IMG/VR virus record: IMGVR_UViG_2660238548_000016
Strand: one strand, 5' to 3'
Length of the DNA stretch: 12,744 bases
From: a virus
Taxonomy: Duplodnaviria > Heunggongvirae > Uroviricota > Caudoviricetes
Shown here: piece by piece, positions 5,350-9,216 of the stretch
How the letters are laid out: each line of letters opens with the position of its first letter
Numbering within the stretch: position 1 is the stretch's first letter
Notes under the pieces: model-generated
The model's input: only the letters and a program-made list of their open reading frames with translations
Told to the model about the DNA's origin: nothing
The model's database searches: none
Translations under genes and position numbers: made by a program

Positions 5350-5577
5350 ATGTTGAAAATTGATGCTATAGCGTTTTTTGGCAGCAAAACAAAGCTTGCC
5401 AATGCCGCAGGAGTTAGGTTGGCAAGCATTGCTGCATGGGGGGAACTGGTTCCTGAAGGTCGCGCGATGCGCCTGCAAGAGGCATCCGGCGGGGAACTTC
5501 AGTACGACCCCAAAGTTTATGACGAATATCGTAAGGCAAAGCGGGCGGGGCGGTTGAACAATGAAAATCACCCCTGA
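5350..5577 (+). CDS. dicC: DicC/YdaS-like Cro-type HTH regulator (75 aa)
   Basis: MLKIDAIAFFGSKTKLANAAGVRLASIAAWGELVPEGRAMRLQEASGGELQYDPKVYDEYRKAKRAGRL matches the DicC/YdaS family. AAGGAG 6 nt upstream; divergent from dicA. Confidence 0.85.
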   Translation: MLKIDAIAFFGSKTKLANAAGVRLASIAAWGELVPEGRAMRLQEASGGELQYDPKVYDEYRKAKRAGRLNNENHP

Positions 5578-6112
5578 ACAGGTTTGTGAGGCTCTGGATG
5601 CCTGGGTATGCCGACCAGGAATGACACAGGAGCAGGCGACGATATTAATCACGGAAGCATTCTGGGCTCTGAAAGAACGCCCGAACATCGATGTTCAACG
5701 CGTCACGTTTGATGATGGCGCGGTTGATCAACGGGCGCTGGGCGTTAACCGGGTGAAGATATTCGAACGCTGGAAATCTATCGACACCAGGGATAAGCGG
5801 GAAAAATTCACGGCGCTGATTCCGGCAATTATGGCGGCTATCCGGATCAGTGATTTCAGGTTGTATCGTGAAATTACTGACGGAAAAAGCATTACGTACA
5901 TGATCGCCGGGTTAAACAAAGAATATGGCGATGTGGTGGAGTCAGGGCTACTTTTTGCGGATCCAGCTGTTGTGGAACGTGAGACTGACGAACTTATAGA
6001 AAAAGCTATTGCTTTCAAGCGTGCGTATCGTCAGCAATACCAACATTACTTTGCAGATAAACAAATATCTGTCTGGGGTTCGTATGAGTATCGATGCGCT
6101 ACGATGGGCTAA
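5561..6112 (+). CDS. YdaT-family protein (183 aa; CII-position regulator or toxin-like protein of Rac/Qin-type prophages)
   Basis: ORF overlaps the dicC stop by 17 nt; position and N-terminal pattern (MKITPEQV...) fit YdaT-like proteins that follow the cro analog. Confidence 0.7.
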   Translation: MKITPEQVCEALDAWVCRPGMTQEQATILITEAFWALKERPNIDVQRVTFDDGAVDQRALGVNRVKIFERWKSIDTRDKREKFTALIPAIMAAIRISDFRLYREITDGKSITYMIAGLNKEYGDVVESGLLFADPAVVERETDELIEKAIAFKRAYRQQYQHYFADKQISVWGSYEYRCATMG

Positions 6113-7124
6113 AAAGGTGAAAACCGGCAGTTCATCCAGTAAGTCAGTATTGACCTGGCTTGCTGATATGTGCGGTGCCGATTTGTGTGCATACCCGTCT
6201 GTATCTGCACTGGCAGAAGTAACGGAACTGAACAAAAAGACTGTGCAGGACAGCTTACGACACCTGATGGAGATTGGGTTAATTGTTGATACCGGTGAGA
6301 GAAAAGGCCGGACAAAACAAATTGTGGTGTACCGACTTATCGGTGTTGAAGAAAGTGTTACCGAGGATGAATACACCCAAAAACGGGAGTCTTTAAAGGT
6401 AGGTAAAATTGGTACTGTTAATAAAAACAGAACCGAAAACGGTTATGTTTCAGCACAAAACAGCCCCAAAAACGGAACTCTTTGCTGCATGGAAAATAAC
6501 CAAAGACACCCAAATTTTCCATCAAAGACACCCAAAAACGGATCACGGAACCCAAAGGAACCCAAAGATTTAAACCCCACACATAACGCACGCGAGAGTG
6601 CTCCGACCAGTGAGCAGGAAGTTTTGTCGTTACAGGCAGTCCCCCCTGTATTCCTGGATGGCCTGAGCGAACCCATCGGAAAATTTCCGATGACCGATAA
6701 CTGGTATCCGTCACGGGATTTTCGACGACGGGCTGCGTTGTGGGGGATGGCTTTGCCGGAGACAGAATTCACACCTGCTGAACTTGCCGCATTCCGGGAC
6801 TACTGGGCAGCGGAGGGGAAAGTGTTTACGCAGGTTCAGTGGGAGCAGAAATTCGCCCGTCACGTAAATCACGTCAGGGCGCAGGTTAAACCAGTCAGCA
6901 AGGGGGTAAACCATGCAGCAGCACCAGGTGGAACCGCATCACGGGCAGTTCAGGAAATTCGGGCAGCACGTGAGCAGTGGGAACGTGAAAACGGATTTAT
7001 CAGCGACGGAAACGGCCTGGAAGCTGTGGGAGCTCATGGGGGAGGTTTATTCGAACCGCTGGACCCAGAAGAACGGGGCCGCACCTTCGAAGCTCTGGAT
7101 TGCACAGATTGGCGCGATGACTGA
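6084..7124 (+). CDS. Replication initiator (lambda O analog): N-terminal winged-helix HTH, C-terminal DnaT-like domain
   Basis: ATG at 6084 (MSIDALRWAKKV...) overlaps the upstream stop. HTH segment ...SVSALAEVTELNKKTVQDSLRHLMEIGLI...; C-terminal DNWYPSRDFRRRAALWGMALPETEFTPAELAAFRDYWAAEGKVF resembles DnaT-like phage replication proteins. Iteron-like repeats lie inside the gene. Confidence 0.75.
   Translation: MSIDALRWAKKVKTGSSSSKSVLTWLADMCGADLCAYPSVSALAEVTELNKKTVQDSLRHLMEIGLIVDTGERKGRTKQIVVYRLIGVEESVTEDEYTQKRESLKVGKIGTVNKNRTENGYVSAQNSPKNGTLCCMENNQRHPNFPSKTPKNGSRNPKEPKDLNPTHNARESAPTSEQEVLSLQAVPPVFLDGLSEPIGKFPMTDNWYPSRDFRRRAALWGMALPETEFTPAELAAFRDYWAAEGKVFTQVQWEQKFARHVNHVRAQVKPVSKGVNHAAAPGGTASRAVQEIRAAREQWERENGFISDGNGLEAVGAHGGGLFEPLDPEERGRTFEALDCTDWRDD
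6370..6570. repeat. Iteron-like direct repeats (putative replication origin) inside the O-like gene
   Basis: CCCAAAAACGG occurs three times (6376-6386, 6465-6475, 6531-6541), with related copies GAACCGAAAACGG (6429-6441), AGACACCCAAA (6505-6515) and GGAACCCAAAGGAACCCAAAG (6547-6567). Confidence 0.45.
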
Positions 7125-7578
7125 GCAGCAAATCCGGCAGGTCTGCCGCCAGTGCATGGACTGCTGCCGGGCGGGTGAAACATGGCCTCCGGACCTGGCT
7201 GAGTTTGTGGCGCTGATTTCGGAAAGCGGGGCCAATCCATTTGGTCTGACGGTGGATGCTGTGATGGAGGAGTACCGCCGCTGGCGCAATGAGTCCTGGC
7301 GATACGACGGAAGTGATAAGTACCCGTGGTCTCAGCCTGTGCTGTATCACATTTGCCTCGAGATGCGTTCAAAGGGGATTGAACGCCAGATGACCGAAGG
7401 GGAGTTAAAACGGCTTGCAGAACGGCAGCTGACGAAATGGGCAAAGCATGTTAGCAACGGCCTGAGTGTTCCGCCTGTCCGGCGACAACTGGCAGCACCC
7501 AAACGTCCTGCGGGACCAACGCCAATTGAGTTGCTGAAACAGGAATATGAACGCCGGAAAGCGGCTGGGTTTGTCTGA
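6913..7578 (+). CDS. Replication protein P-like (helicase loader), 221 aa
   Basis: AGGGGG 6 nt upstream of the ATG at 6913. WKLWELMGEVYSNRW...SKLWIAQIGAMTEQQIRQVCRQ...YPWSQPVLYHICLEMRSKGIERQMTEGELKRLAERQL parallels lambda P (W..A....ITT.EQ.....; YPW.....YWLV......; ...ELRRKAADEL). Overlaps the 3' end of the O-like gene by 212 nt in another frame. Confidence 0.7.
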   Translation: MQQHQVEPHHGQFRKFGQHVSSGNVKTDLSATETAWKLWELMGEVYSNRWTQKNGAAPSKLWIAQIGAMTEQQIRQVCRQCMDCCRAGETWPPDLAEFVALISESGANPFGLTVDAVMEEYRRWRNESWRYDGSDKYPWSQPVLYHICLEMRSKGIERQMTEGELKRLAERQLTKWAKHVSNGLSVPPVRRQLAAPKRPAGPTPIELLKQEYERRKAAGFV

Positions 7579-8518: not shown

Positions 8519-8555
8519 CGCGATAACGGTCAAAAATCATGGCGCTGACACTTTT

Positions 8556-8798
8556 GTGCCACTGGAGATGACTGTACCTAAGTTCAGGGGAGAAGAACAC
8601 GTCCGGTGGGATGGTCGGGCCAGATTTAAAGGGCAGGTCATGGCTCCAGCCAGTACGCTGGCAATGGAGGCTGCCTGGCTGGAAATTGATATGGGAACCA
8701 CGCCACTCAGGGATTTACTGCCGGTCCAGAGAATAAATTCCTGTTACGGTTACACCACTGTGATCTTGCAAGTGCAGGAAAGTAGGTCTACACGGTAA
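8556..8798 (+). CDS. Hypothetical protein (GTG-initiated 80 aa, or 76 aa from the ATG at 8568)
   Basis: ORF in the operon orientation with no recognisable family and a weak ribosome-binding site. Confidence 0.3.
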   Translation: MPLEMTVPKFRGEEHVRWDGRARFKGQVMAPASTLAMEAAWLEIDMGTTPLRDLLPVQRINSCYGYTTVILQVQESRSTR

Positions 8799-9026
8799 CG
8801 CGAGTGCGTGTAACTTTTGATGTTATTTCCGTAGAAACACCGGACAAATTTTCGCTGGCAGGTCATGCTGAAGGTATAAATCTGCAGATTATGGACAATT
8901 ACGGATATCCGGCAAGAGCCGGAAAAAGCATGCCGCCTCTAATTCTCAGTGGAAGATGGACTTGATTATACTCATTGCATTGTCAGAAATAGTTATCCAT
9001 TAAAGGCTGGCTATTCCAAACAGGAT

Positions 9027-9050
9027 GTTGATTACAAAAATGTAATCAAC
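9027..9050. promoter_or_regulatory. Perfect 24-bp palindrome GTTGATTACA-AAAA-TGTAATCAAC (candidate operator) upstream of the binding-protein moron, with TATAAT at 9079-9084
   Basis: 10-bp perfect inverted-repeat arms separated by 4 bp, about 30 bp upstream of a consensus -10 hexamer and about 170 bp upstream of the ATG at 9217, in a strongly AT-rich intergenic region. Confidence 0.35.
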
Positions 9051-9216
9051 ATGTAAGGTTTATACTCTTCAATATGCGTATAATTTTCCTTATTTTGTTA
9101 ACTTTAAATAACAAGCTATGCACGAGGTAAAGTCGGATAAGTTTATCTGGATGTAATATATATTATTTGTAGTGTTTATAACTTTATTTCATGATAACCA
9201 ATAAAAGGAGTTTTTT

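Follow-up and report, generated by a model that had tools for sequence, protein, structure and literature searches.

Are some 70 codons at the junction of two phage replication genes really read in two frames, or does one of the two open reading frames (ORFs) merely run on by chance? The question is raised by a Caudoviricetes sequence of 12,744 nucleotides (nt; IMG/VR record IMGVR_UViG_2660238548_000016), the whole of which we call the window and which matches, at 100%, a prophage from Escherichia coli O103:H2 strain 12009. In this window a replication-initiator gene is followed by a gene for a helicase loader resembling protein P of phage lambda (P hereafter), and the second gene appears to start well inside the first. 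The initial annotation, made from the sequence alone, offered two explanations: either both frames are real and form a compact dual-coding segment, or one of them is a fortuitous or frameshift-derived extension. Annotators of bacterial genomes usually write off long same-strand overlaps as errors, but this one is strongly supported by comparison. Judging from the sequences, we consider it very likely that both genes are real and that positions 6913–7124 are translated in two frames. The first explanation is favoured because the frames are kept open beyond chance and selection acts in both; the second is disfavoured, as the two comparisons able to reveal an artefact, where initiator homologues end and where P homologues begin, both came out against one.

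The overlap and the two proteins

The overlap had been placed exactly in the initial annotation: the two genes share 212 nt, that is 70 P codons plus 2 nt (coordinates in Table 1). The strong Shine–Dalgarno (SD) sequence noted before the ATG at 6913 is also there, with a predicted pairing to the 3′ end of 16S rRNA of −11.9 kcal/mol. Because a TAA closes the P frame at 6907–6909, 6913 is the first start possible in this frame, and in many other loci too the P frame opens just 1–10 codons 5′ of the first ATG.

The initiator, which RefSeq annotates at identical coordinates (WP_000020574.1), is composed of an N-terminal helix–turn–helix (HTH), a low-complexity linker with iteron-like repeats, a DnaT-like domain (amino acids 201–267) and a C-terminal tail of ~70 amino acids. 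It had been called O-like, and as a statement of homology with lambda O this does not hold: in Pfam the protein has no match to the lambda O family PF04492 (Phage_rep_O), and it is an initiator with an HTH and a DnaT-like domain (PF17948, 62.8 bits for a cut-off of 25). The DnaT-like domain is well modelled by AlphaFold2 (AF2), with predicted local distance difference test (pLDDT) values of 77–89 over amino acids 201–260, and the match to HTH_36 (20.9 bits) is below its cut-off. The protein is not DnaT itself, since it scores only 94.5 bits against the NCBIfam DnaT equivalog, for which the cut-off is 201. The initiator is a functional analogue of lambda O, not a homologue.

The assignment of P relies on both profiles and structure. 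P matches Pfam PF06992 (60.9 bits, cut-off 26; residues 56–188 on profile positions 28–161) and phrog_109, "P-like helicase loader" (residues 19–220, E = 1.8e-62). The AF2 model has a mean pLDDT of 77, reaching 87–89 over residues 31–70 and falling below 50 over residues 1–26, with helices predicted at 25–46, 48–54 and 60–67. Its top Foldseek matches are the lambda P chains 9oa1_Z, Y and V, over 198–220 aligned columns (220 for 9oa1_Z) and with a probability of 1.00. Lambda P consists of a disordered N-terminal lasso (residues 1–29; 1–40 as a rigid body), a compact domain II (~30–119), a domain III and a C-terminal lasso (PMC12661323). In the model, a P of 221 amino acids would reproduce this layout with a leader, a domain II, a domain III and a C-terminal region, and a form of 153 amino acids would be without half of domain II and without the three helices just listed.

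The start of P

The start of P was compared in one genome per species, which gave 37 loci across Enterobacterales with P identities down to 42%. In 32 of the 37 loci the aligned P-frame ATG lies 149–242 nt, mostly 212–215 nt, 5′ of the stop of a 300–390-amino-acid ORF in the −1 frame. The other five loci comprise one that is broken (L038), two where P is an orphan gene (L032 and L040) and two where the N-terminus is of the phi80-gp14 type and the overlap measures 17 nt (L042 and L043). A GGAGG-, GAGG- or GGGGG-type motif is present 5′ of the aligned ATG in most loci, and the pairing predicted with the 16S rRNA 3′ end at ATGs of the 6913 type averages −9.3 kcal/mol (35 loci), against a background with a mean of −2.8 kcal/mol, in which −8 or lower is reached at 3% of positions. 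Two loci (L012 and L020) have no other ATG, GTG or TTG between this first ATG and the conserved W36 and W39 of P. The GTG codons at 6928, 6970 and 6985 were tried as P starts and rejected: they are not conserved, and in some loci the interval lacks any alternative start codon.

An alignment of 23 P homologues with 44–74% identity puts residues ~35–68 (AWKLWELMGEVYSNRWTQKNGAAPSKLWIAQIG), all encoded 5′ of 7117, among the most conserved of the protein wherever a homologue spans the region; W50, K53, N54, G55, P58 and W62 are each conserved there at 90% or more. Residues 1–34 are variable across homologues, so the P-like character ascribed to the first 70 residues is confirmed for residues ~35–70 and does not extend to the leader. 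The two orphan P genes, which have no overlapping upstream frame, keep AW.LW...NRW..KNG..PS..W; the initiator frame therefore does not account for the conservation of P in this region.

These observations bear on the possibility that the overlap is an annotation artefact, in which P would start at ATG 7117 as a 153-amino-acid protein after a classic 8-nt ATGACTGA overlap, the upstream frame being fortuitous. The start at 7117 had been named as an alternative in the initial annotation and is the one used by RefSeq, through the Prokaryotic Genome Annotation Pipeline (PGAP), and in the record of phage Rac-SA53; moreover, ATGACTGA is a typical coupling junction, and with the initiator amino acids held fixed the first half of the P frame is open by chance fairly often (median 0.78). 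Nevertheless, this start would leave out the conserved residues 35–68, which the orphan genes keep, and Met69 itself is replaced by F, L or C in ~9 lineages in which the residues upstream stay conserved. The region upstream of 7117 has P-frame codon periodicity and very low P-nonsynonymous rates (0.006–0.013), and the three confidently predicted helices encoded there match lambda P domain II. Furthermore, the upstream ATG and its SD sequence are conserved, and in the first half the initiator codons that have a P-stopping synonym are always in the form that is safe for P (33/33, versus 129/204 in the control, where 37% are unsafe). The counterpart of 7117 is not where P homologues begin, which argues against an artefact, and we regard such an origin of the overlap as highly improbable. 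Where Met69 is present, a short isoform re-initiated at ATGACTGA may nonetheless be made as a minor product.

If P instead started at ATG 7036 (Met42, 180 amino acids), the overlap would be real but only 89 nt long. Many RefSeq proteins of 179–181 amino acids begin in this way, with MGE(I/V)(Y/F)S, and GGGAG is found just 5′ of the codon, with a mean pairing of −5.7 kcal/mol. However, GGGAG is only 3 nt from this ATG, Met42 is missing in 7 of 35 loci, and it sits inside the predicted helix 25–46, downstream of the conserved W36 and W39, while the ATG at 6913 has a much stronger and more widely conserved SD pairing. A start at 7036 is very unlikely.

The starts given to P in databases differ from one another. 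In Citrobacter, Klebsiella and Salmonella, PGAP begins P at the counterpart of 7036 (180/181 amino acids), and in the PPompW phage records the start is later still (140 amino acids). Forms of 221–223 amino acids are already in nr, and P homologues of 212–223 amino acids that begin with MQ are found in many genera. Being inconsistent, the annotated starts are not evidence for any single one. Of the 5426 complete E. coli genomes in RefSeq, 1256 contain matching DNA.

The end of the initiator

Initiator homologues do not end near 6913: in protein searches, homologues at 50–58% identity continue through the tail and cover the protein to its last residue, which again argues against an artefact, and in the species-level loci, where they do the same, identity goes down to ~29%. 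The primosomal-protein profile phrog_3992 ends at the same point as the initiator and is matched by the tail alone (E = 3e-16). A protein search with the tail only (85 amino acids) found E. coli fragments only and is uninformative on its distribution.

The initiator frame, reported in the initial annotation as open to 7124, is open in 35 of 35 loci tested. In a simulation where the P protein of each locus was kept fixed and synonymous codons were redrawn from the loci's own codon usage, it was open through the whole overlap in ~4% of trials per locus (closed in ~96%) and through the second half alone in ~25%. The third frame contains 2–8 stops over the overlap in most loci, and 3 in the window. 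The same avoidance is seen at the level of single codons. At P codons that precede AA, AG or GA, where a T-ending synonym stops the initiator frame, T is used in 0/93 cases in the second half and 0/176 in the first half, compared with 166/659 (25%) in P-only sequence; each of the other three bases, A, C and G, is found at these codons, which indicates synonymous turnover. Across loci the initiator stop is found 23–40 codons after the conserved Trp36 of P. Among 55 IMG/VR haplotypes of 96–100% identity, no nonsense variant was seen in either frame.

Programmed ribosomal frameshifting could in principle join the two frames into an initiator–P fusion. This would fit with phrog_15931 (482 positions), which matches both the initiator (positions 163–347) and P (positions 271–482) over the overlap, and with the few database proteins that fuse the two (P0079 and P0107). 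But a ribosome slipping by −1 out of the initiator frame would not enter that of P, which is +1; it would reach the third frame and meet its stops. P also has its own conserved SD sequence and ATG. As for the fused proteins, P0079 looks like a deletion derivative in which the DnaT-like domain runs directly into P residue ~105, and P0107 like a run-on ORF that goes beyond the P region into unrelated sequence; neither looks like a regular product, and both probably come from defective prophages or assembly errors. The fusion was rejected on the frame geometry and the nature of the fused proteins, with no search aimed at a slippery or +1 shift site, and we consider its probability close to negligible.

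Constraint in the two halves of the overlap

The two proteins are not constrained in the same way along the overlap. Codon-position identity, computed over 17 sequences, has initiator-type periodicity across P codons 1–34, where initiator position 3 is the least conserved, and P-type periodicity across P codons 35–70 (identities 0.85, 0.89 and 0.62). Substitution rates per site were obtained from seven independent close pairs, with small counts. In the first half they are 0.117 for P-synonymous/initiator-nonsynonymous changes, 0.137 for P-nonsynonymous/initiator-synonymous changes and 0.026 for changes nonsynonymous in both frames; in the second half the corresponding values are 0.240, 0.006 and 0.013. 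Synonymous controls in single-coding sequence gave 0.345 (P only) and 0.266 (initiator only). P-synonymous changes are depleted three-fold in the first half, and the synonymous rates of both frames are lower within the overlap than in the controls, so the examination of synonymous sites advised in the initial annotation turned out in favour of dual coding. Variant density among the 55 haplotypes, which are an independent set, points the same way, with 20–24 variants per 100 nt in the overlap versus 32–42 in the flanks; 11 of the haplotype variants in the first half are initiator-synonymous and 5 P-synonymous, and the second half has 14 P-synonymous and 4 initiator-synonymous ones. By these rates, both frames are constrained in the first half; in the second, P is constrained as elsewhere and the initiator only mildly, the exclusion of stops aside. 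Dual constraint is not uniform over the overlap, which is made of an initiator-dominated half and a P-dominated half.

Structure predictions agree with this division. The AF2 model of the initiator has a helix at residues 287–302 (SRAVQEIRAAREQWER) and is disordered over residues 307–346 (pLDDT below 50), so that, when compared with the model of P, the ordered part of each protein faces the disordered part of the other. Each frame also leaves a shadow in the other: the EER/EEW of the initiator comes from the KNG of P, and the GQ.F.K..GQ of P from the AVQ.IRAA of the initiator.

Another possibility is that the last ~35–70 initiator codons are a non-functional read-through, with a functional initiator that ends soon after the DnaT-like domain. 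The second half is where this proposal is most at home, since the initiator amino acids there evolve nearly freely, their conservation being largely the shadow of P motifs, and are predicted to be disordered. Yet stops are avoided in all loci, although about one quarter of the relevant synonymous choices would create one, and the position of the initiator end varies by just the 23–40 codons after Trp36 mentioned above. In the first half the proposal meets with a helix, S-RAVQ-IRAAR, that is conserved out to Vibrio phages, and with the three-fold depletion of P-synonymous changes. A non-functional end of the initiator is therefore unlikely.

Association of the initiator tail with the loader

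The tail has, in order, a GG-type stretch that doubles as the SD sequence of P, the helix motif S-RAVQ-IRAAR and the motif G..G...LD.EE. The same tail ends at least five unrelated initiator architectures and is always paired with this type of P. It is found on the HTH + DnaT body of the window, on a DUF1376 + DnaT body (L004), on a true lambda-O-type PF04492 initiator (L022), on DUF1376 with other middle domains (L024 and L025), on bodies that have no Pfam match (L023, L028, L031 and L035) and on an unclassified N-terminus followed by DnaT (L036). The comparison shows the ~70-amino-acid tail and the P gene to be inherited as one cassette, fused to several unrelated initiator bodies.

The edge of the cassette is visible in a comparison with YdaU of the Rac prophage, whose partner is a DnaC-type loader. 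Over residues 1–235, as far as "QGLF.K", YdaU and the L031 initiator share 53% identity; the 27 residues with which YdaU then ends are unrelated, and it has no tail. The ydaV gene starts 7 nt past the ydaU stop, with no overlap. This comparison places an exchange boundary just 5′ of the SD sequence of P, inside the initiator ORF, and the cassette boundary lies ~25–40 nt 5′ of the P ATG.

The association extends beyond Enterobacterales. In the Vibrio phages D75 (L044, 2001–2212), vB_VpM-pA2SJ1 (L045, 1881–2110) and D68 (L046, 1893–2092) the overlaps are 212, 230 and 200 nt long, the initiator tails are related and the loaders are ~30% identical to P; the helix S-RAVQ-IRAAR is conserved this far. 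The records of these phages annotate shortened loader ORFs (2334–2660 in L044, for example). The loaders of these three phages belong to the VdhL group, whose members were reported to adjoin lambda-O-like genes in Vibrio phages and to be domesticated in Vibrionaceae chromosomes (PMC11087808); the word "overlap" has 0 occurrences in the text of that paper. Because the two-frame stretch is conserved in enterobacterial prophages and Vibrio phages, the shorter loader protein of RefSeq is probably cut short. The 153-amino-acid annotation omits 68 residues, and structural or functional work on shortened P proteins would begin from the wrong construct.

The two orphan P-like genes (L032, 2492–3118; L040, 2474–3043) are in two Erwinia genomes and have no initiator gene upstream. 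The neighbour in L032 is likely a ttcA-type gene, judging from its translation, and in L040 a large membrane transporter-like ORF. These P genes may be prophage remnants or domesticated loaders. They were considered as non-overlapping ancestral comparators and rejected as such: they are orphan P genes beside chromosomal genes and cannot tell which frame came first.

A model for the overlap

On the comparative evidence, P is very probably made as a 221-amino-acid protein from its own SD sequence and ATG 6913 within the initiator coding sequence, and the initiator is read through to its TGA at 7122–7124. From 6913 to 7017 the initiator frame encodes its conserved amphipathic helix and the P frame a disordered leader, positioned like domain I of lambda P; from 7018 to 7124 the P frame encodes the folded helices of its N-terminal compact domain, and the initiator frame a disordered tail that is largely dictated by P codons and kept stop-free. 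The tail could be a loader-specific adaptor by which the initiator recruits P, or P–DnaB. Being encoded inside the P gene, it would keep the partners together as lambdoid replication modules recombine. In addition, with its ribosome-binding site embedded in a translated gene, P synthesis may be limited, or coupled to translation of the initiator; over-expressed lambda P is toxic (PMC4926192).

Several points weigh against this model, or against parts of it. Translation of both products is supported indirectly, by the conserved SD sequence and ATG, and the adaptor role of the tail is proposed from its co-inheritance with P and by analogy with lambda. The second half of the initiator tail shows hardly any purifying selection at the amino acid level (0.240, compared with a neutral-like 0.345), so that the need for it would derive mainly from stop avoidance. 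Modelling of the initiator by AF2 gave a poor result overall, with a mean pLDDT of 51.7 and no more than ~51–67 for the tail helix. RefSeq/PGAP starts P at 7117 in 4/4 E. coli genomes inspected. Finally, because the loci are phylogenetically related, probabilities combined over them are not exact and overstate independence; despite this kinship, synonymous sites are extensively turned over among loci.

A broader interpretation, which we put forward tentatively, is that the 5′ end of the loader gene brings with it, in another frame, the adaptor tail of any initiator that precedes it. Recombination of lambdoid replication modules would graft the cassette of SD sequence, tail and P in frame onto unrelated initiator bodies, be they of the HTH/DnaT, DUF1376, lambda-O or another type. 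The initiator–loader interface would therefore be inseparable from the loader, and the overlap would serve as a device that links an interacting pair, kept in Enterobacterales prophages and Vibrio phages alike and perhaps also in the vdhL loaders domesticated in Vibrionaceae. If the tail is a loader-binding element, the arrangement would account for the exchange of initiators and loaders by mosaic phages with the interaction unbroken, and it would indicate the seat of initiator–loader specificity for a large and little-studied family, the Vibrio VdhL loaders among its members. The parts of this system are known, namely the PF06992 loader, the DnaT-like-domain initiator, same-strand phage overlaps and, in nr, the 221-amino-acid ORF. 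A conserved initiator/loader overlap of ~200 nt and a portable initiator tail were not found described in the open-access literature, where a published description of this overlap was sought and none was found, which is weak evidence of absence.

Other features of the window

The features of the two genes are listed in Table 1. The genes nearby encode dicA/dicC-like regulators, a YdaT-family protein and a DUF1627 (ydaW-like) protein, which indicates a Rac-type early region.

Table 1. Positions of the initiator and P genes and of the elements of their overlap in the window
Feature	Position (nt)	Strand	Remarks
Replication-initiator gene ("O-like" by position)	6084–7124	+	346 amino acids; likely start ATG 6084 (MSIDALRW...); frame open from 6009
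Lambda-P-like helicase-loader gene, full form	6913–7578	+	221 amino acids; +1 frame relative to the initiator
Shine–Dalgarno sequence AGGGGG of P	6901–6906	+	6 nt before ATG 6913; encodes K-G in the initiator frame
TAA in the P frame	6907–6909	+	one codon 5′ of ATG 6913; upstream limit of the P frame
Overlap, first half	6913–7017	+	initiator-tail helix, amino acids 287–302 (SRAVQEIRAAREQWER, nt 6942–6989) / disordered, variable P leader, amino acids 1–34
Overlap, second half	7018–7124	+	P helices (AWKLWELMGEVYSNRWTQKNGAAPSKLWIAQIG), equivalent of lambda P domain II / disordered, sequence-tolerant initiator amino acids 312–346
Internal ATG, P Met42	7036–7038	+	in the P frame; probably not the main start
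Internal ATG, P Met69, within ATGACTGA	7117–7119	+	RefSeq start of the 153-amino-acid "replication protein P" WP_000139453.1
TGA, initiator stop	7122–7124	+	

The YdaT-family gene (5561–6112) overlaps the initiator start (ATG 6084) by 29 nt, and RefSeq annotates both in the same way. Facing the overlap and the 5′ region of P are three long antisense ORFs of 116, 136 and 80 amino acids, on the minus strand within 7000–7444. Downstream of the DUF1627 gene, RefSeq annotates a frameshifted fimbrial-protein pseudogene with an internal stop (L003, 3324–3857; ~8523–9056 in the window).

The low-complexity linker of the initiator gene, between the HTH and the DnaT-like domain, contains two sets of repeats: four direct repeats of ~17 nt, AAnAnnCCCAAAAACGG, at 6370, 6426, 6459 and 6525 (region 6370–6566), and three copies of CAAAGACACCCAAA at 6501, 6523 and 6553. 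These repeats look like iterons, which makes this part of the initiator gene a candidate replication origin.

Comparison with known systems

A close parallel is the O–P pair of lambda. The gene order is the same, with an initiator directly upstream of a PF06992 loader, the loader shares the four-part layout of lambda P, and the candidate origin is internal to the initiator gene, like ori-lambda in O. The C-terminal part of lambda O contacts P, and the lambda O and P genes overlap by only a few bases; the relatives with a phi80-gp14-type N-terminus (L042 and L043) likewise have an overlap of only 17 nt, compared with 212 nt here. The initiator described here also differs from lambda O in being no homologue of it, with its HTH and DnaT-like domain, and its candidate P-contacting part would be a short helix and a disordered tail encoded within the P gene.

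The Rac YdaU–YdaV pair shares the neighbourhood dicA/dicC–ydaT–initiator–loader–ydaW, but its loader is DnaC/IstB-like and not P-like, and YdaU has neither the tail nor the overlap. The Vibrio VdhL-type modules, as judged from the three phage records, have the same overlap of 200–230 nt with an upstream O-like gene, and a related tail.

Classical same-strand out-of-frame overlaps in phages are those of phiX174 A/B/K and D/E, lambda Rz/Rz1 and MS2 L. As in these, one stretch is here read in two frames, with an ordered segment opposite a disordered or tolerant one. Unlike in these, no gene is nested within another: the C-terminus of one replication protein is joined to the N-terminus of its presumed partner, and the overlap moves as a cassette between unrelated upstream genes.

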